Source: a virus
IMG/VR virus record: IMGVR_UViG_3300044825_001015
Coordinates: 40,845 to 104,844 of that record
Strand: one strand, 5' to 3'
DNA length: 64,000 nucleotides
Positions 4,901 through 64,000 of the stretch are shown here, one piece after another; within the stretch, counting starts at the first letter, position 1, and every line of letters begins with the position of its first letter. A model generated the notes under the pieces. It was given only the letters and a program-made list of their open reading frames with translations, had not been told where the DNA came from and did not search any database. Position numbers and translations under genes: made by a program.

Positions 4901-5821
4901 ACATTTGGTGCTTCTAACGGTAATATTTCTATTAAGTGTGAAAAAGAAAGCGGAGGAATTTTAATATACCCATCTATTAATAATTTAGTAGGTAATAAGA
5001 GAAGATTCTTTGCAAGGTATGTATTAAATAATGTTCCTTCTGGGAAAACGGGATATTTAGGTTCTGTTGTCGGATTAAAAATAATTTCTAACCAGATACT
5101 TGATGGACTATTTGTATGGACTGGAGTTACAAATAAAAATAAGCAAACAACAATTACAATATCAATTGTTCAGGTTGTTAATGGAAATGTAAAAGTTATT
5201 TCAGAACCGAAAGACTTTGAGTTTACTGAAGATCTTTTCTCTGAAAATGAAGCACTTGAGATTTATATGGAATTTAATGATCCAATGAATAGGCTAAAAG
5301 TATTTATAGGATCAACATCACTATTTGAAGTAGTTAGATCAAAGGATAAAGAGAATGATCCTGGTAAGAGAAAGGTCGCATTTAAAACTTTAACAATACC
5401 GATCTCTTCAATTAATAAGGATGGCTTCTTTGGCTTTGCTGCCTTACAAAAGGGTCGTGGAACATTAGATGCTTTAGCGTTTACGGCTAGTTCTGATCCA
5501 AGAAATCTTAATAATATATCAATAAATTCATTAGATGGTGATTACTACGCTTCATCAAGTACCACTCCAGCATACTACGCAAATGCAAATACATTATTAA
5601 ATCAAATGGTTTACAACCAGTTCGTGCCTGGATTTAGCACATTCCAAGATTCGTTTGTATTTACTGGAGCGCCAGTAGCCAGAGGGATTAAGATATTCGA
5701 CGTAGAATATCAGGACTATCCAGTAATAGCATCACCAGAAGTTGAATTTTTGGGCTACTCATATAATATAGATGCTATCAGAGGATCTACTCCAATAACT
5801 GGTACGGAGGCAAATAAATAA
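1991..5821 (+). CDS. Large minor tail / baseplate hub protein (N-terminal portion)
   Basis: 1276 aa beta-rich protein in the tail module; hub-like motifs such as SIYTDEYGALRF and NVERGCFGT. Confidence 0.7.
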   Translation: MLGNTTVRNSINGSDVVEAKPKIIAEWNMNSIASPFIHGTETHPISFTPLTLQKGAAAPNITSITETSNFDRTFYSPVFNDNTSQLIIASSSSTSALVSGYAMANGTASLILKNKIPISNGDSIQVSGVGQLFDGSYVVASQLGGVLLSYVTNNSSSNVSLTSSPIQGRVSANISEYYVDFTVSTFASRAAKIFFKLKSDYQFQSQSSQLFLEEFNVTLRAVGLKDGVPVYTQSITKNYTVNSTSWTDAYISFANPDSQVDVVRVYISMEVSNDYRAALIVDQIFGANVSDFEVYTEDRTPLSEVFDVYRPGEVLLDAGPKNVEINSTLTYPQQCTPTQMAHKYAIGDLYQKVQRSITPFAGNPYSYYVSATGWGSKRIWCIYDKEISVNKLVIKVNAIAAKPAVDSFVIKILVNKQWETIQTTSMAFTNNGLLTLYYNGTSWSTTPWSLVPTISEATGQIDKRRIIQGVAFECINQSYTIENSPLNKPDALQTLELIEISPRLELDLSKFVSGLSVNKELDSSDIPLPLGSITSNTATIDFSNIPIIISSSDMNTAEVNDVVPISNYASTSPLKNLLVKGVKLKGSFDINTGVTSGTQSIVNVPSFIMYVERWKETTDIVSAECYDSVKRLQNIKSRPLYLKDKSINEIIYSILDSVGFGDYYFDELSKLKIVKYENDQSSISASTTLNQNIEYFWAVDEDSITDTLNDLLKPYQVSIYTDEYGALRFLSLYEINTKANSVAESDVLYIQDLNQVPQGGTVRRSNLMSLEFEEIERPEKVTIKYKRPMPSLSDYRQAKDRPYASMTESATDIVWEPEQQAQVLSFFEIASPGILTETQNRIPFDINSVSRINRAIENSGYLLIDQEIVKYDGLEYIFTFTNSTGTSQSRTEVIRNSADINRVISEIYQLNEVSNITWSPSGYMVNVERGCFGTEPAKHIVLSNGSRSGWLGREFNAAYKQVSSIDEADGTFGASNGNISIKCEKESGGILIYPSINNLVGNKRRFFARYVLNNVPSGKTGYLGSVVGLKIISNQILDGLFVWTGVTNKNKQTTITISIVQVVNGNVKVISEPKDFEFTEDLFSENEALEIYMEFNDPMNRLKVFIGSTSLFEVVRSKDKENDPGKRKVAFKTLTIPISSINKDGFFGFAALQKGRGTLDALAFTASSDPRNLNNISINSLDGDYYASSSTTPAYYANANTLLNQMVYNQFVPGFSTFQDSFVFTGAPVARGIKIFDVEYQDYPVIASPEVEFLGYSYNIDAIRGSTPITGTEANK

Positions 5822-7089
5822 TGGGAAATACTAATCCAAATGCACAGGAAGTAAGAGATGCACTTAGAGACTATAAAGTAGACTTTCAAACAATAGGTCC
5901 ATGGGATACTGTAGGAAGTGCCTGGAATAATACAGGTGGAGGTCTATATGGATGTATCATGCATCATACTGGGGCTGGAGTTCAGGGATATAAAGGGGCA
6001 CCCTCTCTTACATGGATGAGAAATCCAGTAATTGATGGACAGCCGCTTGGAAAGCCTGCATGTAATATTTTGGTAGGGCGCGGTAAAGGAGATACATATT
6101 TAATTTCAGCGCTAGCAGTTCTTCATTCTGGCCTAGGCGGACCTTGGCCTGCTATTGGAATTAATTCTGCAGGATATGGGGCAGAGTCCAGAACCTTTGG
6201 GGTAGAAATAGAAGGTTCTACGGCATATGCAAATATTCCAGAAAGTCGTCCGTACTTTACTGAATATCAAGAAGAGAATTCTGCAAGAATAGCAGCAGCA
6301 CTTTGGGATCTTTGCGGCTGGCCTGCAGATGGCTCCCGTATTGTCACACATGCTGACTGGACAGATTCTGGTAAATATTTAGGAACAAATAATTACGGAC
6401 CATATCTAGGAAGAAAGCCTGATACTAGAAGGTCTACACACTCTGGTAAATACTGGAGAAAGATGGCTGCAAAATATTTAGATCCATCTAAGGCAGGATC
6501 TGAACCATCTGGAAATACACAAAATGACGGCGGCAAAAAGGGATCAGACAATAAAACAGATGATAATGTTGTAGATTTAGCAAGACAGGTAAAGCCAAAT
6601 GCAGTTGCAAAATCTGTTGTAGCAGGCACTCCTCAAAGAGCCAGGTTTGCATTGATGAATATGGCTAATGAATCTATATATCTATCTGAAGGAGAAACAT
6701 CAGTACTTTCTGGAAGCGGCGAGGGGATACTTTGGGTTAAGGCAAGGACATTAATAGATGGAGAATCCTACGAAGTATCAAGAAAAATTTCAGACAAGTC
6801 TGCAAATGGAGATGTTACGATAGAAACTAATTGGATTCAAAATGATACATCTGCGGAAGCAGCCCTATCCCTCATAACAGACTCTTTTGATTTTAAATTT
6901 AAGTCTGTGACAGTACAGATTTTTGGCAATCCATTGATTCAATTAGGAGATTTGGTAAAACTTACATACAAGACTGGGAAGATATCATTTGATGACTCAA
7001 AATACTATATAGTAACAAAGGTATCCCAGTCTTTTGATATAGGTCTGTCAACAACCGTGTCACTCAGCCCTGTGAATAAATTCTCTTAA
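5821..7089 (+). CDS. N-acetylmuramoyl-L-alanine amidase (Amidase_2) fused to a tail-hub-type C-terminal domain
   Basis: Zn-amidase motifs MHHTG, LHSG, GVEIEG, THADW..RKPD; G/S/K/D linker; C-terminal IFGNPLIQLGDLVKLTY..YIVTKVSQSF. Confidence 0.75.
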   Translation: MGNTNPNAQEVRDALRDYKVDFQTIGPWDTVGSAWNNTGGGLYGCIMHHTGAGVQGYKGAPSLTWMRNPVIDGQPLGKPACNILVGRGKGDTYLISALAVLHSGLGGPWPAIGINSAGYGAESRTFGVEIEGSTAYANIPESRPYFTEYQEENSARIAAALWDLCGWPADGSRIVTHADWTDSGKYLGTNNYGPYLGRKPDTRRSTHSGKYWRKMAAKYLDPSKAGSEPSGNTQNDGGKKGSDNKTDDNVVDLARQVKPNAVAKSVVAGTPQRARFALMNMANESIYLSEGETSVLSGSGEGILWVKARTLIDGESYEVSRKISDKSANGDVTIETNWIQNDTSAEAALSLITDSFDFKFKSVTVQIFGNPLIQLGDLVKLTYKTGKISFDDSKYYIVTKVSQSFDIGLSTTVSLSPVNKFS

Positions 7090-24953: not shown

Positions 24954-25952
24954 ATGATGATGGTCGCAGAAGAAATTCTAGCGAAATTAGATCCAAAGAC
25001 AAGACAAAGAATTCAAATAGCAACAGAGGTAGACGTACAAAAACAGCCTACCCCAAGCATCGGTCTAAACCAGGCTCTTAAGGGTGGCCTTGGGTATGGT
25101 CGCCAAGTTCTAGTTTGGGGAAATAAAAGTGCTGGCAAGTCCTCCTTTTGCCTACAAATGATAGGTATGGCTCAAAAAGAGGGAAAAACATGCGCCTGGA
25201 TTGATTCAGAATCTTCTTATTCAGCAGAGTGGGCCTCCAGTCTTGGAGTAGATTCATCTAACGTTATTTATTCACCAGCAAAGACTATTAATGATATGGT
25301 GGATGTTGGAACAGGGTTGATGGAGGCTGGAGTAGACATTATTGTTGTAGACTCTATCTCAGCCCTACTCCCAGCCATCTACTTTGATAAAGACGGTGAC
25401 GAACTAAAACAACTGCAAGATACAAAGCAAATTGGTGCAGAGGCTAAGGATATGACACATGCTGTTAAGATGTTGAACTATGCTAACAAAAATACTTTGC
25501 TAGTGCTTATTAGTCAGCAGAGGAATCAATTTGGAAGTATGCACGCATCTCATATCCCAACAGGAGGCATGGCTGTTAAGTTCTTTTCTAGTACAGTAAT
25601 TAAACTATGGTCTTCAGAAGCAGAAGCAAATCAGATTAAGGATGATGTTCAAGTTGGGGACAAGTTAATTCAGCAAAAGGTTGGTCGCCCAGTAAATTGG
25701 ATTATTGATTATAATAAACTTGGACCGCCAAATCTTTCTGGTCAATATGACTTTTACTATCAAGGATCTCATGTTGGTGTAGATAGAGTGGCAGAAGTTT
25801 TAGACGTAGCAGAAATGATGGGCAAGGTGGAGCGAGGAGGAGCCTGGTATACAGTACTTGGGGAGAGGCTTCAAGGTAGAGCAAAGGCTGTCCAGTATCT
25901 TAGAGAAAATCCTGAAGTGGTAGATACCTTGGAGTCAATGATTTATGGCTGA
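24954..25952 (+). CDS. recA: RecA-like recombinase
   Basis: Walker A GNKSAGKS, WIDSE, IVVDSISAL, GGMAVKFFSS, GGAWY. Confidence 0.92.
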   Translation: MMMVAEEILAKLDPKTRQRIQIATEVDVQKQPTPSIGLNQALKGGLGYGRQVLVWGNKSAGKSSFCLQMIGMAQKEGKTCAWIDSESSYSAEWASSLGVDSSNVIYSPAKTINDMVDVGTGLMEAGVDIIVVDSISALLPAIYFDKDGDELKQLQDTKQIGAEAKDMTHAVKMLNYANKNTLLVLISQQRNQFGSMHASHIPTGGMAVKFFSSTVIKLWSSEAEANQIKDDVQVGDKLIQQKVGRPVNWIIDYNKLGPPNLSGQYDFYYQGSHVGVDRVAEVLDVAEMMGKVERGGAWYTVLGERLQGRAKAVQYLRENPEVVDTLESMIYG

Positions 25953-47300: not shown

Positions 47301-47752
47301 AAACCGCAGTAATATTCGATATGGACGGCACGCTTGCAGATGTATCGTCTATTCGTCATCATCTAACTAAATATGATGAGGGTAAGCGTAGGGTTATTAA
47401 GCATTTTAATAAATTTCATGCTGAATCAGTTAATGTTCCTCCACATAATCATGTAGTAAATGCTACCCAAGTCGCACATATGCTAGGACATGCGGTATTA
47501 GTTGTTACTGCAAGAAAGCATATGTGGAGAAATCAAACGGCATGGTGGCTAGCAATGCATAATGTTCCTAGTGATATGCTAATGATGCGCGGGGATGAAG
47601 ACAATCGTAAGGACTATGAGGTCAAGAAAGATATGCTTGACACTCTCCGTAAGGCATACGATATAATTCATGCATGGGATGATAATCCAAGTATTATCAA
47701 ACTATGGCAGGAAAATAATATTCCAACTACAGTAGTTCCAGGATGGGAGTGA
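47297..47752 (+). CDS. HAD phosphatase (polynucleotide 3'-phosphatase-like)
   Basis: FDMDGTL, VTAR, D..VK, WDDN. Confidence 0.85.
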   Translation: MKTAVIFDMDGTLADVSSIRHHLTKYDEGKRRVIKHFNKFHAESVNVPPHNHVVNATQVAHMLGHAVLVVTARKHMWRNQTAWWLAMHNVPSDMLMMRGDEDNRKDYEVKKDMLDTLRKAYDIIHAWDDNPSIIKLWQENNIPTTVVPGWE

Positions 47753-52424: not shown

Positions 52425-52799
52425 TTGTCCACATAGGGCTATATACATGTGGATAAGTTGTGTATAACTTCATACAAATTGTGAATAAAGATATACAACT
52501 ATTAAATTAATTGTGTAGGTGTAATGGGCCAAGATACACCCCCCATCGTAATGTCAAGAAAAATGGGGCATTTTTATAATATATTTACCAAATATGACCC
52601 CATATTATTTAATTATGCCAAATTCTGTAAAATTCCATGAAAAAATTAGCCCCTTCGTAATATGCCCAAAGATATCCACAATCTGTGGATAAAATGTGGG
52701 CGGGATATGTAATGTGTATCCTATATTTATCATATATAGTATATGTAAAGGATTAGATCCAATTACCCCCCTGTGGATAACTTGTGGAAAATATCCACA
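52425..52799. promoter_or_regulatory. Cluster of DnaA boxes
   Basis: TTGTCCACA 52425; TGTGGATAA 52448, 52684, 52772; TGTGTATAA 52459; TGTGAATAA 52480; ATATCCACA 52672, 52791; TGTGGAAAA 52783. Confidence 0.75.
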
Positions 52800-52912
52800 A
52801 ATTTCCATGATTTTTTTATGTCCGTCGTAATGTCTAATTAATTTTTTATATCGGCGCTATCTCCGAAATTTCTAAAAATTTCCATGATTTTTTATAAGCC
52901 GTCGTAATATGC

Positions 52913-52960
52913 TTGACAAATTTTATTGTCGGTGCCGCCACCGAAATCGGTGGCTGTCAA
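52913..52960. repeat. 48-bp dyad element, copy 1
   Basis: TTGACA-N10-TCGGTG-N4-CACCGA-N10-TGTCAA. Confidence 0.85.
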
Positions 52961-52961
52961 G

Positions 52962-53210
52962 TCACAACATGAATGCAATCCAATTGTCAATCCAATCCTG
53001 CTGGGTCCAATTGTCAATATTGGCATATCGCTCTGGGGTGAACTGCTTGCGAATCTCCTCCGCCTCAGGGTACTTGGAAGGAATAGAGAATCCCCAAGGT
53101 GTGAAGTACCCATCCTCTGCGATAGCCTGCTTCACCTGGGCGGTGAAGTTGGGCTTATCAAACTCAAGGATACCCATGTCAATCGCTGCAACTGCTTCAT
53201 CAAATGTCAT
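52962..53210 (-). CDS. Hypothetical protein (leaderless)
   Basis: ATG 6 nt after the -10 of promoter 53217-53238. Confidence 0.6.
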   Translation of the reverse strand: MTFDEAVAAIDMGILEFDKPNFTAQVKQAIAEDGYFTPWGFSIPSKYPEAEEIRKQFTPERYANIDNWTQQDWIDNWIAFML

Positions 53211-53216
53211 ATCCAT

Positions 53217-53238
53217 ACTATACACCCGCCCTCTGACA
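53217..53238 (-). promoter_or_regulatory. PafBC/RecA-NDp-type promoter
   Basis: TGTCAG-AGGGCGGGTG-TATAGT. Confidence 0.75.
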
Positions 53239-53396
53239 TTAGTCAAGAAAAGTGGTCTGGCTGCTAGGAATTTCAAGGCTCCTGCTTTAGTTAACGACTA
53301 GGGCGTCCCCTGATAGCCGCACCAGACCTTCTACCTTACCTACTCCAATATTGTATCACTTCAACTTTTTGTACGTCAAGCCCTGGCTTGATGGGT

Positions 53397-53753
53397 CTAC
53401 TCAGCCCCTCGCTGAACGAACGACGGAGCATATCGGCTTGTATAGTCTTCGATAGTTCCTCGGGCAGTTGTACCACCAGCCGCAAATCCACGACCAGGGT
53501 TGTAGTCGGGTACTTCTTCATAGTCATTCACCACCTCATGCATGATACGAGAGGCCATCTCACCAATCACGGGATCGCCAATGCCATAGCGCCAGTCAAT
53601 CTCGTTGAGCATGAACCATCCAATCGCAACCTTGTGCAACATAGCCGCAGGATATCCACCAGCAGTCTTTACTAGATTAGCAAACTGATATGGATTATAG
53701 AGCCTGTTATTTGCTGCCTCCACAAATGCTTTCGCTGCCTTTTCCTCTATCAT
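53397..53753 (-). CDS. Hypothetical protein
   Basis: GAAAGGA SD. Confidence 0.6.
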   Translation of the reverse strand: MIEEKAAKAFVEAANNRLYNPYQFANLVKTAGGYPAAMLHKVAIGWFMLNEIDWRYGIGDPVIGEMASRIMHEVVNDYEEVPDYNPGRGFAAGGTTARGTIEDYTSRYAPSFVQRGAE

Positions 53754-53779
53754 GATATCCTTTCGATGGGGAGTCTACA

Positions 53780-54142
53780 TTATACACGAACGAGCGGGTC
53801 TTTGCTAGTGGCAATGGAAGAAGGAGCCTTTACTCCCCCCTCGCATGTGCAGTACATCATGTGGTAATGACAATCAAAACATGTAACAAACTCTATAACG
53901 TATCCCTCTTTACTACGACCCTTGAGTTTCTTAGGCTTGCGAACAGCAGTCATAGGTGGAACATGTGGACGGATAACAGCAGGCTCTACCTCAGGTAGAC
54001 CATCGTCACGCTTTCCTGTACGTCCTTCTAGTTTCCCGCCCTCTTCTTGATAATCCTTCAGAGCAGTCATCATCTCAGCAGTAAAGCGACCACGCTCTCC
54101 TACTGTGAATCCCAGACTACGCAGATACTCACGCTTGTCCAT
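53780..54142 (-). CDS. Lsr2-like DNA-binding-domain protein with C-terminal Cys cluster
   Basis: REYLRSLGFTVGERGRFTAE resembles the Lsr2 C-terminal domain with its RGR AT-hook. Confidence 0.7.
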   Translation of the reverse strand: MDKREYLRSLGFTVGERGRFTAEMMTALKDYQEEGGKLEGRTGKRDDGLPEVEPAVIRPHVPPMTAVRKPKKLKGRSKEGYVIEFVTCFDCHYHMMYCTCEGGVKAPSSIATSKDPLVRV

Positions 54143-56379
54143 TCCATACTCCGTTCTCTGTCATGATCTCTACTTGTACCTCTAGGTTGTATTCAGCCTG
54201 AGTATAGAATCTGAAAGCAACATCAACCATTCTAAGCAGGGCAGCATCATTCAACATAGCCGCCTCGTTCTCGTATGTCCTAAGATGGTCATGATCTTCT
54301 GAGTGTAGTTCCCACACATACCCGCCAGGACCACAGTCAATCTCTATAAACTTTAGCATTAGATATCCATCCTTAGTTGTCCATCGACCTGATTAGCCCA
54401 CTCCGCTTCCTCGCGCTCGTAGTCTGCCCACAACTCATCTGGCTCTGAGCAATCCCAGAAGAGCGCATCCCACAGACGCAACTCATCGCACATTGAGCGA
54501 CCTGTCACCACCGCACCGTTAGGCAACTCATACTTACGATCAAACACAGTCTCATCAGAAAACTCGTAGTCCCAGTTATCTTGCATGTCTGCCCAACCTA
54601 GGATGTATGGATCGGAGTCACGCTGTAACTCATCGAATATCTCCTGCACGCGCAACTGAATGTCATGCGGAATCGGCGGGTAGAAGTTAGCAGTAAGGTG
54701 CATGGTGATATCTGTCATTAGTCCTCCACAGGATCGACACTAACGGAATCTTGGATATAGCCGCCCTCAACAAGAATGGCGTCGGAATGATTATACTTGC
54801 CATTCCAGAAGTTCGCAAGAACATCGTCAAGCGTGTCTGCCTCTACGAACAAGTCCCACCAGTCCTCGGTTTGATAACTAATCTTATACTTAGGCATAAG
54901 GAACCTCCAATGGAAGAACGAACCAGTCACCATCACCATGATTAGATCCATAGTCAATGGCTTCATCCCTAGAAACGAACGGTCCATGAAGAGTATGACC
55001 ATCGAAAGCATTACCAAATGCAACTATGTATTTCACAGTTCCTCCCCATTCTCATCCTGATAGATAATTCCATAGGAATCACCAAAGTCCTCATACACCC
55101 AATCTTCGATATACGCCAGCACTTCCTCTAGGGTAGGCTCATATGGCTCGGCATTATCATCACCACGGCTGCCATAATCGTTCATAGCCTGCAATGATTC
55201 TACAATCTGGACAACATCATAGGTAACAGTCTTGATAGCGTTGATACGTTCAGGAAGAGACATTATTACCCACCATCCTACCCGACACCACTATCCCAGG
55301 AGCAGGCCAGGTATCGACAATGTATCCAAGAAGTCTAACTAGAGACTCATCAAGTGCTGCCGTGATAGGTGTATCATCATCTGGCGCTTCCCAGCGATCA
55401 GGTAGCCTATCGTCAGAAATAAAGATATTACCATCTGGGAAGTAGGCGGCGGTATCAGATTCTACCCCCCACCTCTGAGTATCTGTGTCATAGAATACAA
55501 CATAGTGCAACTGCATGATTACTCCTTATCCTGCGTAGGGCTGGGTCCAGTCCCAGGCATACTCCTGGAGAATCTCTTCTACCCTAGCAATAGCCTCGCT
55601 CTCATCATCAGCGTCAATGATGAAACTAACATTCTGAACGTCTACTGAAATATCCATCAGTCCTCCATGAAGTTGTAGTAGTAGCGAGTATAGCCAATCG
55701 GCTCGGAAGAGTCAAGAGGGTCAAGGGTGGGATGGGAAGAATACTGCAACGTCCCCTTCACTCCATCACTCTTACGCTTGACAATACACAGATCATAGAA
55801 GAATCCTAGAACCTCATACTGCTCTAGCATCTGATCTTTGGTAAGCATATTACTGGCTAGCATCAGTCCTCTGCCTCCTCATATGTCATGAGATACAAAC
55901 TCTGCTCTCTTACCACCCACACCAAACCCTCGCGGGTGTTGGTGTTGAGATATTCTAGTGCATCCTCATAGGTCCAGTCAATAGCATCCAGAATTTCATA
56001 GTGCCTATCATCATCTACCTCATCAGAGGATAGCCAATTCATATCAGCAATAAACTGATCCCACTCCAACTCAAATCCATAGTCGTGAGCCAATTCGATA
56101 ACTAGGCACATGAATTCTAGGTTTGATCTATGGCTACCGTCAATGTAGCAACCAGTCTCAGTCTTCATCTGGGATTACATCCTCCACGGTGGGAACAATA
56201 GAAATGTTGTTCATGATCTCGTTATACAACTCAGGATCACGACCACTAGCAAGGTCGTCAGCCAACTGCTCCAACTCCTCGCGGGTCATGTCATCATATG
56301 CCTCATACTCATACTCAAAATCCATGAAATGACCAGTTCCCTCATAGATGAGTTCTACTGAGAATGTGATAGTAGCCAT
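54129..56379 (-). CDS. Operon of small acidic hypothetical early proteins (54129-54359, 54359-54718, 54718-54897, 55033-55263, 55250-55516, 55657-55863, 55863-56168, 56158-56379)
   Basis: Overlapping stop/start codons and GGAG SDs. Confidence 0.55.
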
Positions 56380-56648
56380 TCTAACTCCAGTCGTCTGGGC
56401 GGAATCCGCCTGATGTAAGCCAATTATCCAATGCAAAGAAGGCATCTGTCAAGAAATCCATAGCCTCTTCTGCATCAACTTCCAAAGTTCCCCACTCCTC
56501 CCAACGTGCAAGCGCGACGCGGATAGAAGAAAGAGTTTCATTCGGGTCCATATTCTCTCCTTTCTAGGTATATCTAGTAAAGCCTATGCGAGAGTATATG
56601 TCAAGCAGGTTTTCTGTGATTTCCGTGATTTTTTCGTAACCGTCGTAA

Positions 56649-56696
56649 TTGACATTAGGTAGATTCGGTGCTGCCACCGATTTGCGGATTTGTCAA
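56649..56696. repeat. 48-bp dyad element, copy 2
   Basis: TTGACA-N10-TCGGTG-CTGC-CACCGA-N10-TGTCAA. Confidence 0.85.
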
Positions 56697-56697
56697 G

Positions 56698-56765
56698 CCC
56701 CACCCCAGAGAATCGAACTCTGCCCGACAGGTTTTGGAGGCCCGTCTGCGCCCAGCGCGGGTGGA
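56698..56765 (-). tRNA. trnW: Atypical 68-nt tRNA-Trp (CCA) with a minimal D arm
   Basis: TCCACCC/GGGTGGG, D arm GCGC-TGG-GCGC, loop CT-CCA-AA, T arm CAGAG-TTCGATT-CTCTG, discriminator G. Confidence 0.7.
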
Positions 56766-56768
56766 TCG

Positions 56769-56870
56769 GAGCAGTTTATCCATTGTCCAATCTAGGATTC
56801 CCTCATGCTCAGGAGGTTTTCGGCCCCATGCCTGCCGATGGCAGGGCAGTTTTACATCATGCCCAGGATG
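56769..56870 (-). ncRNA. Two tandem H-type pseudoknot motifs (56844-56870 and 56769-56816)
   Basis: CATC-CTGGGCAT-GATG-TAAAAC-TGCCC and CCTC-CTGAGCAT-GAGG-..-TAAAC-TGCTC. Confidence 0.7.
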
Positions 56871-56875
56871 TTTGA

Positions 56876-57880
56876 TTACGCGAAGGCGATTTCCTTGACC
56901 GCCTTCAGGATGCGACCCTTCTCCGCATTGGTGACAGGATCGAAACCGCTAGCGGCTGCTGCAACATTCTCAGCACCCCGCTCACCACGGCCCTTGCGGA
57001 ACCAGTCCAGACGCTCCGTGAGAGCATTGAACGCACCCCACGCGGTGCCTGCGATCATGTTAGTGGTGTCGGAAGAGTAAATCTCCTCCAGCAGATCGAC
57101 CTTAGTCTCCCACTTCTTGACAGCACCCTTGGCATCCTTGTCGGGACGCGGGTAGACAGCCTCAACAATGGCATCAAACTTAGCCTTGGTAATCTCCTTG
57201 GCAATAAGAGCCTGAGCCTCCTTATCGAAGGTGTCAAGGTACTGATTGGCGAGAGAAAGAGCCTCGCGTGCAGCCTGAACCTTACCACCCACGGTCTGCG
57301 TGTGGCGAATCTTGAAGGACTGCTTCACACCCTGAAGAGCCATGTTCAGAGTGTTCTGGCACACCACGCGAACGGGAGTGATGGAAGCCTGCACAGCAGT
57401 AGAACCATCATGCGAGGTGTGGACGAGAAGGTAGGACTTCACAACATCCGACACACCATTGGGGTCAAGGACAGTCTCACGCTCCAGCGCAAGCGAACCG
57501 AACACGACACGACCCTGGCGAATAGAGCCAGCAGTCTCCCAACGACCACCGTCAAGGAGGGCGTCACCAAAGTTGAAAAGATCCTCGTTCTGAAGAACGT
57601 GGTAGCGCTCACCAACGGTAGCAAGAACGTCAGTACCCTGGTCGAATGGGTTGTCACGAAGGACCATGTAGGAAGGCGTGATCACATTGTACGCCTTGGG
57701 GTAAGGAACGGCCTCCAGGCGAACGTTCCAGTTGGACAGGTAAGCCGCATCCAGCATCTCCTGGGTGGACTTCTCCTCAAAGAACACGGTCCCAAGACCA
57801 TGCCAAGCGGGTTCGCGGAAAGAAGCAAAAGACTGCTTCTCGCCATCCCGACTAACCTCTACTGCGTGTGGCATATTCAT
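56876..57880 (-). CDS. DUF932 (phage/plasmid TIGR03299-like) protein
   Basis: PAWHGLG, WETAG, SHDGS, TPVRVVCQNT, RHT, GTAWGAFNALTE. Confidence 0.9.
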   Translation of the reverse strand: MNMPHAVEVSRDGEKQSFASFREPAWHGLGTVFFEEKSTQEMLDAAYLSNWNVRLEAVPYPKAYNVITPSYMVLRDNPFDQGTDVLATVGERYHVLQNEDLFNFGDALLDGGRWETAGSIRQGRVVFGSLALERETVLDPNGVSDVVKSYLLVHTSHDGSTAVQASITPVRVVCQNTLNMALQGVKQSFKIRHTQTVGGKVQAAREALSLANQYLDTFDKEAQALIAKEITKAKFDAIVEAVYPRPDKDAKGAVKKWETKVDLLEEIYSSDTTNMIAGTAWGAFNALTERLDWFRKGRGERGAENVAAAASGFDPVTNAEKGRILKAVKEIAFA

Positions 57881-57908
57881 CTCCTTAGTTGATCGAACTT
57901 ATGGAACT

Positions 57909-57930
57909 ACTATACACCTGGGGACTGACA
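57909..57930 (-). promoter_or_regulatory. PafBC/RecA-NDp-type promoter
   Basis: TGTCAG-TCCCCAGGTG-TATAGT. Confidence 0.75.
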
Positions 57931-57980
57931 CTCGCAAGACTTTTTCTAAAAAATCCGTGAAAAATATTCTCTCGTCGTAA

Positions 57981-58013
57981 TTGACTTTACTAGGATTTCG
58001 GGGCAGGCACCGA
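57981..58013. repeat. Dyad element, copy 3 (partial)
   Basis: TTGACT-N11-TCGGGG-CAGG-CACCGA. Confidence 0.7.
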
Positions 58014-58018
58014 AAATA

Positions 58019-58046
58019 TGAGCAGTTTTTCGTCATGCTCAGGACG
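58019..58046 (-). ncRNA. H-type pseudoknot motif
   Basis: CGTC-CTGAGCAT-GACG-AAAAAC-TGCTCA. Confidence 0.7.
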
Positions 58047-58147
58047 CCATTAATGGTTGCAATGCTGGGGAATATAGGCGCTATTGGAAGTCCATGAGTC
58101 CCTAGGTTGACTTTCTCTTCCCTCACCCTATGTTGCCATACTCTGCG

Positions 58148-58220
58148 TACCCCCAACGGGATTCGAACCCGTGCTACCGCCTTGAAAGGGCGGCGTCCTT
58201 GGCCTCTAGACGATGGGGGC
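58148..58220 (-). tRNA. trnE: tRNA-Glu (UUC)
   Basis: GCCCCCA/TGGGGGT, CCGCC-CTTTCAA-GGCGG. Confidence 0.92.
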
Positions 58221-58228
58221 TATCTGGT

Positions 58229-58654
58229 CTAACTCTCAGACCAGTCAATCTCCATGCGATCCTCTGAGAAGTCTGCCTCTACATCAGCAGAGTAGTAGTG
58301 CGACTCAAGGCTAGCACTCAGATCATTCTCAAGATTATCCATGTCGTAGTTCAGAGGAACACTAACGGTCCCGCTGAATGTGACGGTCACAGTAACATCG
58401 TAGTCCTTGCTGATGCTAAGACCAAAGATATCGACAAGGCTCTGAGAAATCTCCTCGTCAATGTAGTCATACTGCTCCTTGACGTACTGCTCAAGGTTGT
58501 CGATCATCATCTGACGATCATGTGCCCTGGCCTGCCAGAAATCACGATCAGCAGTCATACTAGCAAGGGCGTTGTTCAGTTGATCAATCTTAGTCTCCAA
58601 CTCCTGCATGGTGGGCGGGAATGGATGAATGTCAGTCATGCTAGGGTCAATCAT
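58229..58654 (-). CDS. Hypothetical coiled-coil/acidic protein
   Basis: GGAGG SD; host-like codon usage. Confidence 0.65.
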   Translation of the reverse strand: MIDPSMTDIHPFPPTMQELETKIDQLNNALASMTADRDFWQARAHDRQMMIDNLEQYVKEQYDYIDEEISQSLVDIFGLSISKDYDVTVTVTFSGTVSVPLNYDMDNLENDLSASLESHYYSADVEADFSEDRMEIDWSES

Positions 58655-58655
58655 G

Positions 58656-59045
58656 TTACACCTCCATCAATGTCTTAGCGTACTTATTGATGAACTCGTT
58701 CAGGGAGAACGTGACAATGATATCAGTCAGCACTCCTGACTTCCAATCATAGTCATACAGAGTTACGGTCTTAAATGCAAAGTCAAAGACAGGAACCTTA
58801 TGCTCGTTGTCTGCAAGGTAGTTCACAGTAACACCCCAGCCAAGATCACCCTGCCATGCATCACCAACCAACTGCGAGATGATAATACGATTTGCATAAG
58901 CCTGATCGTCAATGCGTCCAGCATCCTGCACATGGTCAAGAGCATTAGCAAACCTAGCAAGCATACCCTCGCCAGCCCAATGTCCGTAGATGAAGATGGT
59001 GTTGCCATCGACCTGTCGAAGTCCGAAATTAGCGCGGTCGCCCAT
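58656..59045 (-). CDS. Hypothetical protein (MGDRANFG...)
   Basis: GAAAGG SD before ATG 59045; promoter at 59075-59096. Confidence 0.65.
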   Translation of the reverse strand: MGDRANFGLRQVDGNTIFIYGHWAGEGMLARFANALDHVQDAGRIDDQAYANRIIISQLVGDAWQGDLGWGVTVNYLADNEHKVPVFDFAFKTVTLYDYDWKSGVLTDIIVTFSLNEFINKYAKTLMEV

Positions 59046-59074
59046 GGTAGTGCCTTTCTGTAGTAGGTAGGGAA

Positions 59075-59096
59075 ACTCTATCATGTAGGTCTGACA
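59075..59096 (-). promoter_or_regulatory. PafBC/RecA-NDp-type promoter that also has a TTGACA -35
   Basis: TTGACAAC-TGTCAG-ACCTACATGA-TAGAGT. Confidence 0.75.
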
Positions 59097-59105
59097 GTTG
59101 TCAAG

Positions 59106-59188
59106 TGCCCCAAGCGGGAGTCGAACCCGCACTCCGTTATGGAACTTGATTTTGAGTCAAGCGTGTCTGCCAATTCCACCATCGGGGC
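59106..59188 (-). tRNA. trnL: tRNA-Leu (CAA)
   Basis: GCCCCGA/TTGGGGC, CTTGA-CTCAAAA-TCAAG, long variable arm. Confidence 0.9.
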
Positions 59189-59191
59189 GTG

Positions 59192-59222
59192 TGGGCAGTT
59201 TTAGCGAACATGCCCAGGTTCG
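59192..59222 (-). ncRNA. H-type pseudoknot motif directly 5' of tRNA-Leu
   Basis: CGAAC-CTGGGCAT-GTTCG-CTAAAAC-TGCCCA. Confidence 0.7.
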
Positions 59223-59232
59223 TCCCAACTAA

Positions 59233-59608
59233 TCAGCGACCAGCGGGGATGCCATGCTTCAGAGTCTCCAACGCGGGGGTGGAGTCAATGAACTTGCCAT
59301 TCTGACGAGTGACAATACGAGTCTGGACACCATAACGGGTGTTCCAAGTCTCAAGGTAGGTGAACTTAGGGGTCTTGCTCTTCTTGCTTGCCATGTTTTC
59401 TCCTTTACTAGTAAACGGGTAGTGCATCAACTACGGCAACAATCTTACCATTTGCCGCTCTTGCAATCAAGTCTGCGCGGGACTGATTATGAATCGTGAT
59501 ATCAAAATGCGTATCATCATAGATATCAAATTCCACGCCATGCTTGATTGCTTCAAATACCCCCGCGCCCGTGGATGAGCGGGAGGGAGTACGGATAGTA
59601 GCAATCAT
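59233..59608 (-). CDS. Two small hypothetical genes (59233-59394, 59408-59608)
   Basis: SDs present; downstream of promoter 59635-59656. Confidence 0.55.
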
Positions 59609-59634
59609 GTTACCCTCTTTTCTGTTGTAGTACT

Positions 59635-59656
59635 ACTATAGCCTAGGGGTCAGACA
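59635..59656 (-). promoter_or_regulatory. PafBC/RecA-NDp-type promoter (variant)
   Basis: TGTCTG-ACCCCTAGGC-TATAGT. Confidence 0.7.
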
Positions 59657-59707
59657 CTCACAAGAAAAAATTTCTATGATTTCTGTGATTTTTCTTAAAA
59701 CTCGTAA

Positions 59708-59756
59708 TTGACATATGTGAGAATCGGTGCTGGCACCGCCCTGACAGATTTGTCAA
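59708..59756. repeat. Dyad element, copy 4
   Basis: TTGACA-N10-TCGGTG-CTGG-CACCGC-N11-TGTCAA. Confidence 0.85.
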
Positions 59757-59901
59757 GGAGATACGCTCTAGTATTCCTGACTTTCTACTTGGTCAAGGAT
59801 ATCGCAGTATAGCGAACCTAGAATGTATCCTTCATTCATCAAGTCCCGCAGGCACATGAGTACCTGATCCCAATCAGCACGCGGCATCTCTACCTTTACC
59901 A

Positions 59902-60132
59902 CTACACACCCGCCAATCTCTTACGCTCTACACCCGTCATGCCACCATAGACATGAGGCTCGAAATCCTCGTTGCGAATCGCAAATGCGAGGCAATCCTG
60001 CACAACGCTGCACGTTGCACAAATCGACTTAGCCTTTTCGATGCGCGAGGCAACACCTGAGAGAAACAGGTTGCTATCCGCATCCTTGCACGCTGCCCTA
60101 TCCTGCCACATTCTGATCCTTCTTCCACTCAC
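59902..60132 (-). CDS. whiB: WhiB-family transcription factor (early region)
   Basis: WQDRAAC..F..AKSICATCSV..C..HVYGGMTGVER. Confidence 0.88.
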   Translation of the reverse strand: MSGRRIRMWQDRAACKDADSNLFLSGVASRIEKAKSICATCSVVQDCLAFAIRNEDFEPHVYGGMTGVERKRLAGV

Positions 60133-60521
60133 GCGCTTCCTTGCGCTTGATTAGTCTAGTCTGCATCTTTCGCGGTGCTGACGGGCAGCAGCCGTAGTAG
60201 CAATTCATCCGATGCTTGCCGACATTACGGCGGGATCGAATCAAAAAGGCACCTCCTCATAGCGCACCCCATCGACAATCAGAGTGCCGTCATCCAGATA
60301 CATGCACCGCGCATAGTCGAATGCATGGTCGCCCAGCATGTAGTAGTTATCCAGCCAAGCCTTCTCAAACTCCACCGTGGTCATCATGCTACCACCTCCA
60401 CAATCTCAACAGTCTGACGGGGCGATGCCCAAAAGTCTCGGATAGTCTCAGCACCCTCGCGGGTGGCGACCGTGGAAAAGAACTGCCCATCTACGAATAC
60501 CTTGTATGTTGTCATGGCTTC

Positions 60522-60848
60522 ACCTTATCAGAGGGGTCTGACACCCAAGGGTTGGGGTCAAGGTCAAGGGTGGCCTCCAAGCGGAGGAAGTTCTCATACA
60601 GTTCTTCTAGGTTCATGCGTATACCTTATCATCTAGGTCTGACAGGCAATCACAGTCATATGAAACCTTGAGGTAGTCCTCAAAGGCTTCCACGGTCATG
60701 ATGCCCTTGTATTCATGGCACAGTCCGCACCACTTGGCATCCAGGGAAATCTCGTTATCGCAAAAGCAGCAAACGAGGTGGGAATGGAGAGTGTTGTTCA
60801 TTTCTAGCCTTTCTTTCTATGCCCTAAGGCTATCATGAGGGACTGACA
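60522..60848 (-). promoter_or_regulatory. Three tandem PafBC/RecA-NDp-type promoters (60522-60543, 60623-60644, 60827-60848)
   Basis: TGTCAG-N10-TAAGGT twice, TGTCAG-N10-TAGCCT once; each heads a tiny ORF. Confidence 0.72.
60613..60801 (-). CDS. Small Zn-finger protein
   Basis: CCFC..CGLC; GAAAGG SD. Confidence 0.55.
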   Translation of the reverse strand: MNNTLHSHLVCCFCDNEISLDAKWCGLCHEYKGIMTVEAFEDYLKVSYDCDCLSDLDDKVYA

Positions 60849-60914
60849 TTCACCGAATCCAAAATATATACAAATCGGACAACATTTCTGTGATGTATTT
60901 CACTTCGTCGTAAC

Positions 60915-60963
60915 TTGACAAATTCAAATTTCGGTGGCGGCCCCGAATTTCACTTGTTGTCAA
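60915..60963. repeat. Dyad element, copy 5
   Basis: TTGACA-N10-TCGGTG-GCGG-CCCCGA-N11-TGTCAA. Confidence 0.85.
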
Positions 60964-61144
60964 GTACCTTGTATATGACATAGATCACGGCGACTACGGG
61001 AAGTACGAGGCATGACATTCCCAGCACTAACATAGCGGTACTAAAAATGTCAAGCGCCTGCGAGTCTACAATATTATGCTCTGCCATTTCACACCCCCAC
61101 AAAGTCGCGCAGCATCTCCCGAAAGTTCTCTAGCGTGATATCGT

Positions 61145-61690
61145 TCATGCTGCACCCCCTCGCACGATAATCCAGATGAGAGCCTGCGCGGTGCGCGGTG
61201 TGATATCAAACTCCGCAGCGACAGTAGTGACAGCCTCAGAAAGTTCGCGGTATTGCGTCTTATTGGGCGAGTCAGTATCCATGCCAGCGGCTCGCATCAT
61301 CCATACGTCAATGACAACCGCGTCAGTATCGCCAGCGATAGCGCGAGCGAAAGCGTTAGTCTTTAGTCCGTTCAACGCATCAAATCCCGCGACCATGGAA
61401 GCCTGAGCCATGCGGAGATTATTGCCCAAGCCCTTAGGGGTCTGACCAAGCGAGAACGCGATAGCCTTAGCGACGTTAGTGGACCAACGCTCACGCGGCG
61501 AGAATGCTGCGACGATGGATGCGCCTACCTCTAGGGTAGTGTCAAGGTTACGGGCGACTTCCTCTGCAACCTCCTCCGCATCACGGTACCAGACGGATGC
61601 TTGCTCCATCTGCGCGAGGGTGGCGGTCATGATAATGGAACGGAAGGTGTCAGTAGCGGTAGGGGCGAGAGTATCTGTCATCGTTGTCAT
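61145..61690 (-). CDS. Helix-hairpin-helix DNA-glycosylase-like protein (leaderless)
   Basis: WY..AAFSPR..W..N; GLKT.AF; VVIDVWM; AQALIW. Confidence 0.6.
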   Translation of the reverse strand: MTTMTDTLAPTATDTFRSIIMTATLAQMEQASVWYRDAEEVAEEVARNLDTTLEVGASIVAAFSPRERWSTNVAKAIAFSLGQTPKGLGNNLRMAQASMVAGFDALNGLKTNAFARAIAGDTDAVVIDVWMMRAAGMDTDSPNKTQYRELSEAVTTVAAEFDITPRTAQALIWIIVRGGAA

Positions 61691-61696
61691 GGAATG

Positions 61697-61907
61697 ATCC
61701 TAGCACTAGGGTCCGACATTGGGAAGGGGTAATTAGTCATTTTCGGTAACGAAACGGTTACGATGCTTAGGCTTGCGAGAATACTTAGCCTTATTCCGAT
61801 GGGGCGCGGCAATATTAGAGCGGCGCAACTCCAAGGTACGCTGAATCTCATCACGGGTACGCTTACGATTCTTGATCATGGGAAAATACTAGCACACCCC
61901 TCCGACA
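61697..61907 (-). promoter_or_regulatory. Two PafBC/RecA-NDp-type promoters (61697-61718, 61886-61907)
   Basis: TGTCGG-N10-TAGGAT and TGTCGG-N10-TAGTAT; an ATG lies 6 nt downstream of each. Confidence 0.78.
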
Positions 61908-61947
61908 ATGGGAAGAAATCTCAGGAAAAATATTTTCGTGTCGTAAC

Positions 61948-61995
61948 TTGACAAACTTGGATATCGGTGGCGGCACCGAATTTAGGATTTGTCAA
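61948..61995. repeat. Dyad element, copy 6
   Basis: TTGACA-N10-TCGGTG-GCGG-CACCGA-N10-TGTCAA. Confidence 0.85.
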
Positions 61996-62350
61996 GTCTA
62001 TTTCTAATAGAGTTAGCAAGAATCTCTAGCGAGTATTCTATATCCTCTAGAATTTCAAAGTCTGCTGGATTCTCTGCAGATGCCCACATGCGCTTGCAAC
62101 GTGTGAGCAATTCTTGAATGTCATTCCATTGCATTGTGAGATTTATATCGAATGGACGACGCTCTATCACCTTGACGTTACTCACCGATCCACCTCGCAA
62201 CTGCCGCGCAGAAATCTTCAAACGTTGTCTCCTTATCGAATCCAAACGTGAAGCAGTCTACCTCGTTGTTTCCATTGTCATAGACATTGACAGTATGCGA
62301 ACCGTTCCATACATACGTCCATCCTGAGCGGGAGTCATGAAGTTCTAGCA

Positions 62351-62623
62351 TTACTCCACCGCCCGAAAGTTCTCCATGAACTGTGCAAAGTAGATCAGCG
62401 GAACGTACGGGTACACCTCATGCGAGTAGAGTGCGGCAAACTCTGGCAGAGGCTCAGTAACCCACTCATCATTCTTGAAGAATGCCAGTTCGACAGAATG
62501 CGGGAAGCGTGCGTATGCTCCATCTCCGATTGCAATGGATACCTCATCGGCCATGGGGTGAGCGATCTTGGCCCTGGCGTTGATGTAGTGCCTATCACCA
62601 TATGTTTCAGCGCGGGTAATCAT
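62351..62623 (-). CDS. Hypothetical protein
   Basis: SVELA..VYPYVP; SD present. Confidence 0.55.
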   Translation of the reverse strand: MITRAETYGDRHYINARAKIAHPMADEVSIAIGDGAYARFPHSVELAFFKNDEWVTEPLPEFAALYSHEVYPYVPLIYFAQFMENFRAVE

Positions 62624-62748
62624 TAGAAGCCTTCCTCTATTCCACCAACGATTGCCATAGCAGTAAGGATACCGCTAATAATGACGAATGACAAGACATG
62701 CTGTGCGAATGTTCTCATGATTCCTCCCTCTCGCATGTGCATGATCCA

Positions 62749-62770
62749 AAGTTACCACGGGCGTCTGACA
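62749..62770 (-). promoter_or_regulatory. PafBC/RecA-NDp-type promoter
   Basis: TGTCAG-ACGCCCGTGG-TAACTT; ATG 6 nt downstream. Confidence 0.7.
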
Positions 62771-62806
62771 GTAGAAGCCTGCCACACTTAGCGCATGTGC
62801 GGAACA

Positions 62807-63088
62807 CTAGAATTCCAATCCCATCGAAGCCAGTCCTGTGATCAGTTGGGCCTGGATCACAGGGTCATTCTTGTCCTCAGGCTTGAGCCACTTTACCATG
62901 GCAGACCCACGGGACTGCATGGTATTACCCTGCGTGTCGGTTACGAGGAACCAGTCATCCTCTAGCGGTTCGATGATGAACCACCGAGTATGGAGCATCC
63001 CCTTAGCGTTCTCTCCAAGGATACCCTCCACAAATGGTGGGCACTCTCGCATGGGAGTGGTGACGATACGATCTACTGATTCGATCAT
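62807..63088 (-). CDS. Hypothetical protein
   Basis: GAAAGG SD before MIESVD. Confidence 0.5.
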   Translation of the reverse strand: MIESVDRIVTTPMRECPPFVEGILGENAKGMLHTRWFIIEPLEDDWFLVTDTQGNTMQSRGSAMVKWLKPEDKNDPVIQAQLITGLASMGLEF

Positions 63089-63214
63089 GGCCTGACCGCC
63101 TTTCCATTGACGAGGACCCATTCCCCGCAGCCATAGCAAATCCAACGAGGGGCGGCGGTACCAAGACGGATGCTGCCCTTGCAGTTCTCACACGGTGTCT
63201 TTCTCATGTCTCCG

Positions 63215-63236
63215 ACTCTACACTAGGGGGCCGACA
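63215..63236 (-). promoter_or_regulatory. PafBC/RecA-NDp-type promoter
   Basis: TGTCGG-CCCCCTAGTG-TAGAGT; ATG 7 nt downstream. Confidence 0.75.
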
Positions 63237-63313
63237 ATAGTCAAATCCAAAATGCATACAAATCGGACATTTTCAAAGTTTTTTTTCTGGGAAAAAATCC
63301 AAGGTTTCGTAAC

Positions 63314-63345
63314 TTGACATTTTATGATTTCGGTGGCGGCACCGA
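63314..63345. repeat. Dyad element, copy 7 (partial)
   Basis: TTGACA-N10-TCGGTG-GCGG-CACCGA. Confidence 0.8.
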
Positions 63346-63423
63346 AAAATTCCATGAAATTTCTGTGACAGTAGTAATACCGTCGTAAGACTTTTTTATA
63401 TCTAATTATTCGGTCACAGGTGT

Positions 63424-63439
63424 TCGAACTGTTGTTCGA
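63424..63439. promoter_or_regulatory. LexA (SOS/Cheo) box
   Basis: TCGAAC-TGTT-GTTCGA, a perfect match to the actinobacterial TCGAAC-N4-GTTCGA. Confidence 0.7.
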
Positions 63440-63449
63440 ACCCTGCCGC

Positions 63450-63468
63450 TTAGGTTAGGCTGACCTAA
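63450..63468. promoter_or_regulatory. IdeR/DtxR iron box
   Basis: TTAGGTTAGGCTGACCTAA versus consensus TTAGGTTAGGCTAACCTAA (18/19). Confidence 0.7.
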
Positions 63469-64000
63469 GCGCACGCGCCAGACGGATTAGGTCACGGTAG
63501 TATTCTACTCGCGCCGCATCCTGTCGGGATACCGCGTCCTGCCCGATACGGGCGACCAATGCGCGGCGTTCACGTTGCGCCATAGTCTGACGCGGCGGGA
63601 TGCCACGGTAGGGATAGGCGTTCACCTACGCCCCCTAGCACTCTTAGCGTACTCCAAGACTCTCATCTCAGAGCCACAGTCGCAGATAGCGCGACCAGCG
63701 CGAGACCCACGACCATTCACGCGGTCCCAGACCACGTTGGTTACGACATGACCAACGCGCATGAACGCGCCGTCCCTAGTGGTACACGCCCCATCGAAGG
63801 ACGAGACTGCATACCAATTTCTCTTGCTATTCATGCGGACACCTCCTGCAGCACGCGACGCTTGGACTCTACGGCGAAGCGACCTGTGAGGCTACGGTTC
63901 GCGTAGCGAAGGTAGGTCATGGCCTCGCCATGGGTAATCCAACGAGTGACGGGCACACGCCCATAGATCGAAGCGTGATCCAAGCGGACTACGCGGTATC

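Follow-up and report, generated by a model that had tools for sequence, protein, structure and literature searches.

Promoters resembling those of the actinobacterial DNA damage response in a promoter-dense gene arm of an integrase-free freshwater actinophage

The final 64 kb of the virus record IMGVR_UViG_3300044825_001015 were analyzed as one stretch (the window, 64,000 nucleotides [nt] long, whose positions serve as coordinates throughout), and the region under study, 52425-63468, belongs to a gene arm whose predicted promoters resemble those of the actinobacterial DNA damage response. The evidence supports the view of the arm as a modular block of small genes, dense in promoters, carried by a freshwater actinophage of 105 kb that lacks an integrase. 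It also supports assigning the arm promoters to what appears to be the PafBC (RecA-NDp) type of the host, a class that the phage family conserves. The mechanism that we moderately favor is that host PafBC, together with single-stranded DNA (ssDNA), would adapt sigma-A RNA polymerase to these promoters and that LexA and DnaA would contribute accessory inputs. Of the "switchboard" of host-regulator sites that the original prediction had seen here, the PafBC-type promoters, the DnaA boxes, and the LexA site stand, and the IdeR, CRP, and GlnR/MtrA inputs are not supported.

The pattern TGTCNG-N10-TANNNT occurs exactly 11 times in the region, always on the minus strand, which is the gene strand there. 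The mean in 300 dinucleotide shuffles of the region was 0.35 matches (maximum, 3), and the other 90.8 kb of the genome contain 3, which bears out the 11 promoters originally predicted; a 12th match lies just past the record junction. The base seven nt after the -10 element is A in 10 of the 11 sites, and an ATG stands exactly at the predicted start in 7, the signature of leaderless mRNA, while the remaining 4 have leaders of 25 to 29 nt bearing a Shine-Dalgarno sequence. The sites and the open reading frames (ORFs) behind them are as follows.

63215-63236, minus strand: PafBC-type promoter, ATG 7 nt after the -10, 40-residue ORF at 63085-63207
62749-62770, minus strand: PafBC-type promoter, leaderless 39-residue ORF
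61886-61907, minus strand: PafBC-type promoter, leaderless basic 48-residue ORF at 61733-61879
61697-61718, minus strand: PafBC-type promoter, leaderless DUF7178 gene
60827-60848, minus strand: PafBC-type promoter, 25-nt leader with Shine-Dalgarno sequence, Cys-rich 62-residue ORF
60623-60644, minus strand: PafBC-type promoter, leaderless 34-residue ORF
60522-60543, minus strand: PafBC-type promoter, leaderless 43-residue ORF
59635-59656, minus strand: PafBC-type promoter, 26-nt leader, 66-residue ORF
59075-59096, minus strand: PafBC-type promoter, abutting the 3' end of tRNA-Leu and also having a TTGACA -35
57909-57930, minus strand: PafBC-type promoter, predicted to drive the DUF932 gene
53217-53238, minus strand: PafBC-type promoter ahead of the last gene of the arm, whose leaderless start is at 53210

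On this map, the arm would be divided into at least 11 short transcription units with one promoter each, 7 of them leaderless.

The same promoters recur in related viruses. A search with the DUF7178 protein as query retrieved 33 related contigs, many of about 100 kb, which carry 303 distinct motif sites on the gene strand and almost none on the opposite strand. The logo of the 303 sites reads AA-TGTCAG-A-CCCC-N2-TG-N-TANNNT-N6-A; the A seven nt after the -10 is present at 89% of them and is preceded by a pyrimidine, and an ATG is found at +6 or +7 in 100. As a control for a search pattern that itself forces TGTC, 112 sites were anchored only on TGnTAnnnT and an ATG at +6, and TGTC occupied the exact PafBC position in approximately 80% of these and was absent there on the control strand. 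A -35 hexamer (TTGACA at 16- to 18-nt spacing) matched at no more than 3 of 6 positions in 75% of the 303 sites. In four relatives of about 100 kb, the motif is limited to one block of 8 to 10 kb on a single strand, and relatives have 9 to 27 promoters per arm, compared with about 12 in 12 kb here. When the window is counted together with 32 related loci, 28 of these 33 genomes retain the promoter ahead of the DUF7178 gene; the protein is 61 to 100% identical among them while the leader changes, leaderless and leadered forms alternating. At least 120 IMG/VR stretches carry the consensus pattern, many as dense one-strand arrays, which makes it a widespread feature. Judged on sequence, the promoters are real and form one arm-specific class, whose predicted architecture is a hybrid: a sigma-A -10 (TANNNT), often TG extended, combined with a TGTCAG(A/T)CCC element at -28 to -23 and mostly lacking a -35.

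In the published PafBC motif, tGTCgg(N10)tA(N3)T, the 5' element occupies -23 to -28; the sigma-A -10 is canonical, a -35 is lacking, and PafB reads the GTC through R46 and R50 (PMC8635444). The activator is switched on by ssDNA and joins promoter-bound RNA polymerase, not binding DNA alone (PMC11804915). The phage motif, TGTC(R)G followed by 10 nt and TANNNT, has the same sequence core and register, including the invariant GTC, with its element at -28 to -23 when counted from the inferred start at the conserved A. Two features set the phage sites apart from the bacterial ones: they form a dense, phage-borne array with more TG-extended -10 elements, and they precede small ORFs without known function, not repair genes.

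We also searched the phage consensus, TGTCAGACCCC-N2-TG-N-TANNNT, in GTDB with one genome per species and obtained at least 120 matches. Among the 80 matches listed, 50 are from Actinomycetota and 13 from Myxococcota or "Deltaproteobacteria," and the genes downstream encode RadA (7), DUF222 (9), WGR (4), EgtA family GCS2 (3), and DEAD-box helicase (2, read as RecQ-like) proteins and a LysM protein, the last in a Nanopelagicales genome. Actinobacteria carry the identical extended consensus before radA, DUF222, egtA-like, and LysM genes, and the downstream genes are often leaderless at +6 or +7. Besides the ergothioneine cluster and recA, we take the other downstream genes to be PafBC regulon members as well. 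The ergothioneine cluster and recA have themselves been named members of that regulon (PMC8223512). In three contigs of Myxococcales metagenome-assembled genomes (L103, L099, and L113), the consensus stands directly ahead of recA, recN, and recJ; a PafBC-like damage regulon outside the Actinomycetota, in Myxococcales, is suggested.

The candidate host clade appears equipped with the activator. A Candidatus Planktophila genome and a Nanopelagicales genome each encode two adjacent WYL genes, and the Nanopelagicales pair has its best match in the solved M. smegmatis PafB and PafC, with both GTC-reading arginines present. The region upstream of recA contains TGTCGG-N10-TANNNT and a LexA box in both genomes, and one radA of these genomes is leaderless behind GTCAG-N10-TAAATT. 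Neither a WYL domain nor sigma-70 region 2 was detected in the phage.

The DnaA boxes that had been predicted are strongly enriched at the junction where the two arms of the genome meet, and they recur in relatives. Within 52448-52800, there are three perfect TTATCCACA boxes (0.11 in shuffles) and three relaxed ones, and the opposite strand has two copies of the 8-mer TATCCACA.

52437-52961, no strand assigned: AT-rich junction at which the plus and minus arms converge, with the DnaA cluster and three or four bipartite repeats
52448-52456, 52684-52692, and 52772-52780, within the junction: perfect DnaA boxes

The boxes lie in both orientations, some 11 bp apart, with AT-rich DNA adjoining, as in an oriC-like cluster. 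Clusters of perfect boxes occur at either arm end in relatives, and in distant relatives pairs of boxes 12 bp apart separate hairpin from promoter, the place that the TTACGACG motif described below takes in this phage. Such pairs or runs lie at 5050-5062, 5621, and 6157-6169 in locus L018, 7049-7061 in L029, 7359-7403 in L035, and 6963-7159 in L014, which has nine perfect boxes within 250 bp. A perfect box is found no more than 150 nt upstream in 19 of 330 promoters (about 0.4 by chance), and Nanopelagicales genomes contain this 9-mer in clusters and more often than expected. DnaA-box clusters are known at oriC, at plasmid and phage origins such as P1 oriR, and at DnaA-titrating loci. The present cluster resembles them in its several perfect boxes in both orientations, its AT richness, and its adjoining iteron-like repeats, and differs in lying at a convergence of arms, in a phage with its own DnaB, DnaG, and DnaE; further, the box pairs of some relatives are inside promoter modules and not in one cluster. 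The cluster with its interleaved bipartite repeats looks like a putative iteron-plus-DnaA origin, and a role as a DnaA sink or in transcription is just as possible. GC (guanine plus cytosine) skew tracks the coding strand and does not separate origin from terminus.

The predicted LexA box is perfect, and the IdeR-like site lies close to it.

63424-63439, no strand assigned: perfect LexA (SOS) box, TCGAAC-N4-GTTCGA, with none in shuffles
63450-63468, no strand assigned: IdeR/DtxR-like palindrome that agrees with TTAGGTTAGSCTAACCTAA at 18 of 19 positions and overlaps the stop codon of the ORF at 63455-63625

The related loci hold six perfect LexA boxes in 0.55 Mb, compared with about 0.03 expected; these are present in some relatives and differ in their spacers, a difference that speaks for selection on the palindrome arms. 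No recognizable promoter overlaps the LexA boxes, and in this phage about 190 nt separate the box from the next PafBC-type promoter downstream. The phage encodes a RecA of its own (24954-25952); this protein could accelerate the cleavage of LexA and in that way interact with the LexA box of the arm. In motif maps of the relatives, the promoters, DnaA boxes, and LexA boxes recur, and the IdeR-like element is not conserved as such. It is a single copy over no promoter, and the only relative with an element at that position, L005, has a palindrome of other spacing that forms a long GC hairpin; because of this counterpart, we read the IdeR-like box as a probable terminator-like hairpin that resembles an operator by chance. 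The site that had been predicted is present, and the iron input attached to it is not borne out. The two weaker inputs are without support. The CRP-like site (60889-60904, 9 of 10 positions) is one variant copy of the bipartite motif, and no perfect CRP site exists in the genome; the GlnR/MtrA-like site (61746-61761) is an inverted repeat that codes for the C terminus of a 48-residue ORF that the closest relatives also begin. In the textbook examples of such control, LexA boxes in phages and the regulation of corynephage beta tox by DtxR, a single operator overlaps the promoter. The arm shares with these systems the presence of host regulator sites within phage DNA, in the form of LexA and DtxR/IdeR-like boxes, and differs in the distance between its LexA box and the next promoter and in the lack of conservation of its IdeR-like box.

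The promoters are embedded in repeated modules. The seven dyads of the original prediction were all found as hairpins of the TCGGTG-N4-CACCGA type, five of them framed by TTGACA...TGTCAA, and its bipartite motif, TTACGACG...TCAYGGAA, is present in nine copies, including those listed here.

52913-52960, minus strand: dyad 1 (TTGACA...hairpin...TGTCAA)
56649-56696, minus strand: dyad 2, starting at the very next base after tRNA-Trp
57998-58013, minus strand: hairpin 3, inner stem only
59708-59756, minus strand: dyad 4
60915-60963, minus strand: dyad 5
61948-61995, minus strand: dyad 6
63330-63347, minus strand: hairpin 7, inner stem only
52803-52830 and 52880-52907, with a third at 52633-52660, minus strand: bipartite repeats TTACGACGG-N9-AAAATCATGGAA, interleaved with the DnaA boxes
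56612-56648, minus strand: bipartite motif of module 2
57953-57980, minus strand: bipartite motif of module 3
59681-59707, minus strand: bipartite motif of module 4
60886-60913, minus strand: bipartite motif of module 5, containing the CRP-like site
63361-63388, minus strand: bipartite motif of module 7

The recurring order that had been proposed, namely dyad, bipartite motif, promoter, and genes, is true of five or six modules. The outer arms of the dyads (TTGACAA/TTGTCAA) are conserved in sequence; the inner GC stem of 6 to 7 bp varies in sequence between copies and relatives, and its pairing is always kept. The median folding z-score is -3.4 (n = 31 distinct dyads), and an exact search of the hairpin in IMG/VR gave one chance match, inside a gene of a 66%-GC phage, so the hairpin is conserved in structure only and not in sequence. 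Since the inner stems covary, we favor a structural role for the dyads, as putative terminators, insulators, or processing sites at the end of a cassette, and consider a sequence-specific operator less likely. The distance of the bipartite box from the promoter varies (about -63 to -90), which makes an activator site of fixed position unlikely. In the middle of the module, some relatives have a DnaA-box pair and others the TTACGACG motif; this interchange, with the turnover of gene content described below, agrees with the exchangeable cassettes of the original prediction. A three-copy repeat, TCCTGRGCATGA, is found on the gene strand at 56798-56868 and 58028-58044, in the 3' regions that precede tRNA-Trp and follow tRNA-Glu, and is probably the element earlier called a "pseudoknot."

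The virus record is complete, at 104,844 bp with ends that share a 127-bp terminal repeat. Plus-strand genes reach to about 52436 and include those for a DnaB-like helicase, a DnaG-like primase, a DnaE-type polymerase, RecA, and GMP reductase; minus-strand genes run from the record end back to 52962. The minus arm covers 52962-64000 and about 450 bp more past the record junction into the record start, beyond which are additional minus-strand genes with ordinary low GC content. The GC content is about 50% in the arm (53000-64000) and about 37 to 42% in the remaining genome, with a sharp step at 53 kb, and the contrast is repeated in more than 20 independent related contigs (among loci L004 to L035). 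A higher GC content might let an arm that is expressed first escape the AT-seeking silencing of the Lsr2 type; the arm itself encodes an Lsr2-like protein. The plus arm (window 1-52436 and genome 2500-40844) is very compact, with 28 gaps of at least 40 nt totaling 3.5 kb in 90 kb, and a k-mer search of it found no repeated intergenic motif. The absence of an integrase, claimed for the window, extends to the whole genome, in which neither a tyrosine nor a serine type was found.

Megablast of the region and the plus arm against 50,697 phage records returned zero DNA-level relatives. The best match of DnaE is in Streptomyces phages of the BE cluster such as BillNye (57% identity). DNA sequencing runs containing the sequence are freshwater or lake metagenomes, three of which may represent the source sample, and there were no RNA runs among the runs listed. 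Two phage genes served as probes for the host: GMP reductase had no confirmed relative in GTDB genomes, and WhiB matched 210 of 401 Actinomycetota genomes, with the best listed at no more than 55% identity and unlabeled by taxon, a result that is uninformative on the host.

The WhiB and Lsr2-like genes named in the original prediction were both recovered in profile searches, and the recognizable genes of the arm are the following.

53780-54142, minus strand: protein with an Lsr2-like N terminus, phrog_6269, E = 5.9e-8
56697-56765, minus strand: tRNA-Trp, 69 nt, ARAGORN only
56876-57880, minus strand: DUF932 protein, from the Pfam/PHROG search
58147-58220, minus strand: tRNA-Glu
59105-59188, minus strand: tRNA-Leu
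59902-60132, minus strand: WhiB-like protein, PF02467, E = 1.2e-16, full domain with four Cys
61145-61690, minus strand: DUF7178 protein, homologous to gp85 of Mycobacterium phage Timshel

The Lsr2-like match covers residues 1 to 40 only, without a Pfam match and with a domain order unlike that of Lsr2. An Rfam scan at E of ≤0.1 reported two tRNAs only, tRNA-Trp not among them, and 20 small arm ORFs searched against Pfam and PHROG gave no family. Gene content turns over fast: among the 32 related loci, WhiB is present in 13, the Lsr2-like protein in 7, and DUF932 in 29. Freshwater actinophages that encode whiB are already known as a group (PMC10914622). In Timshel, a cultured L5-like phage, only one gene of the minus-strand block lies to the right of gp85, and the promoter motif is at chance level; its only two matches are at record position 52899, near the right end, and at 47308, just upstream of repressor gene 71.

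The mechanism that we moderately favor would begin with host PafBC loaded with ssDNA, which would turn the promoters on by "sigma adaptation," inserting itself between the -26 element and region 4 of sigma-A. The arm would fire once ssDNA appears, be it through DNA entry, end resection, the start of replication, or a damaged cell. At the most upstream module, the LexA box would add an SOS input, and the DnaA-box and repeat cluster at the arm end, a possible origin or DnaA sink, would add a DnaA input. The units would be separated by the covarying dyads, as terminators or insulators, and by the conserved bipartite box with a binding factor of its own. We infer the PafBC dependence, the ssDNA trigger, and the "early" timing, to which just two observations point: the small-gene content and the place of the DUF7178 homologue in Timshel. 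In L5-like phages, the minus-strand gene block at the right end is early.

Several observations weigh against this mechanism. A TG-extended -10 is present in approximately 68% of the promoters, and 17% of the 303 family sites match the -35 at 5 or 6 of 6 positions and would be minority dual promoters, so many promoters could fire with sigma-A alone. BillNye, the nearest cultured relative, has only 2 chance-level matches, even though Streptomyces has PafBC. Nanopelagicales are only a candidate host, and the phages isolated from them belong to a different family, with 39 kb and 45% GC (PMC10202952). A requirement for ssDNA would be surprising in the activator of the first genes to be expressed, and a phage protein of an unrecognized family, perhaps from among the 20 small ORFs, could read the element. 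A tentative alternative is that these are genuine promoters of the extended -10 sigma-A type working without PafBC, with TGTCAGACCCC read by another factor, such as a phage protein synthesized or injected early on or a different host protein, or only tuning the spacer. The TG and -35 frequencies and the room for a novel DNA binder speak for it, and the arm encodes a WhiB, a protein type that binds sigma-A region 4. However, the same extended consensus precedes DNA repair genes in actinobacterial chromosomes, which have no phage factor; WhiB is detected in too few of the related loci to be the general reader; and no WYL domain was detected in the phage.

That the sites are mainly decoys, by which replicating phage DNA soaks up PafBC, DnaA, and LexA and blunts the damage response, replication control, or WYL-controlled defenses, is unlikely. 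Their number is compatible with titration (about 12 PafBC-type sites per genome and, in a relative, up to nine perfect DnaA boxes in 250 bp), as is the convergent junction of the DnaA cluster, which is not a classic origin context; yet the starts and leaders that follow the 11 sites point to their use as promoters, and the recruitment of PafBC to promoter-bound RNA polymerase makes its simple titration less likely (PMC11804915). We find it very improbable that the IdeR (iron), CRP, and GlnR/MtrA inputs are functional too. The 18 of 19 positions shared with the DtxR/IdeR consensus and a DtxR-family gene in one Nanopelagicales genome are in its favor, but the site is single, its L005 counterpart is spaced differently, and the CRP-like and GlnR-like sites have the other explanations given above. 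An artifact is hardly credible, whether a chimeric assembly of a 50%-GC fragment with a 37%-GC phage or the recent duplication of one cassette: the GC jump at 53 kb would fit a chimera, but the same arm and contrast appear in the independent contigs from other metagenomes, the record closes on its terminal repeat, the promoter flanks differ, and the driven genes are unrelated.

Phage L5 uses one strong promoter with repressor "stoperators," and phiC31 has repeated early promoter/operator units. The arm is similar to the right arms of L5-like phages and to phiC31 in being a leftward block of small genes, with a homologue of gp85 and with regulatory units repeated between small genes, and differs from L5 in showing no repressor or integrase and in its many promoters of the host damage type. 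The left part of the BillNye genome (BE cluster, Stanwilliamsviridae) has similar kinds of genes, with ThyX (minus strand), a glycosyltransferase, structural genes, helicase, primase, and then DnaE, in the absence of any DNA similarity. In the T4 middle promoters (MotA/AsiA), too, the -35 contact gives way to an element recognized by way of a factor on sigma region 4, a comparison between PafBC and T4 sigma appropriation that has been made before (PMC8635444). T4 brings its own factors, whereas this phage, in which no WYL or sigma gene was detected, would borrow the activator of its host.

PafBC sigma adaptation is known only as a chromosomal DNA damage response of Actinomycetota, and we found no paper linking the PafBC promoter motif to phage transcription. 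The present data suggest that the phage may tie its arm to host sensors of DNA status. On a wider reading, which we hold to be doubtful, a virulent family of lake actinophages would read the DNA status of the host through three borrowed proteins, with PafBC sensing ssDNA at every arm promoter, LexA reporting RecA activity from the upstream module, and DnaA reporting replication potential from box pairs or clusters, and would gate its takeover genes on the replication or damage state of slow-growing, streamlined hosts; the covarying dyads beside promoters might even furnish the local ssDNA required by PafBC. If the dependence on PafBC is true, this would be the first lytic phage family to run a whole gene arm on a host damage activator, the host-factor counterpart of T4 MotA/AsiA. 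With the motif, such arms would then be easy to recognize by sequence in metagenomic actinophages (the IMG/VR stretches noted above already carry the consensus pattern), and phage infection would be tied to ssDNA sensing in abundant, hard-to-culture freshwater bacteria.

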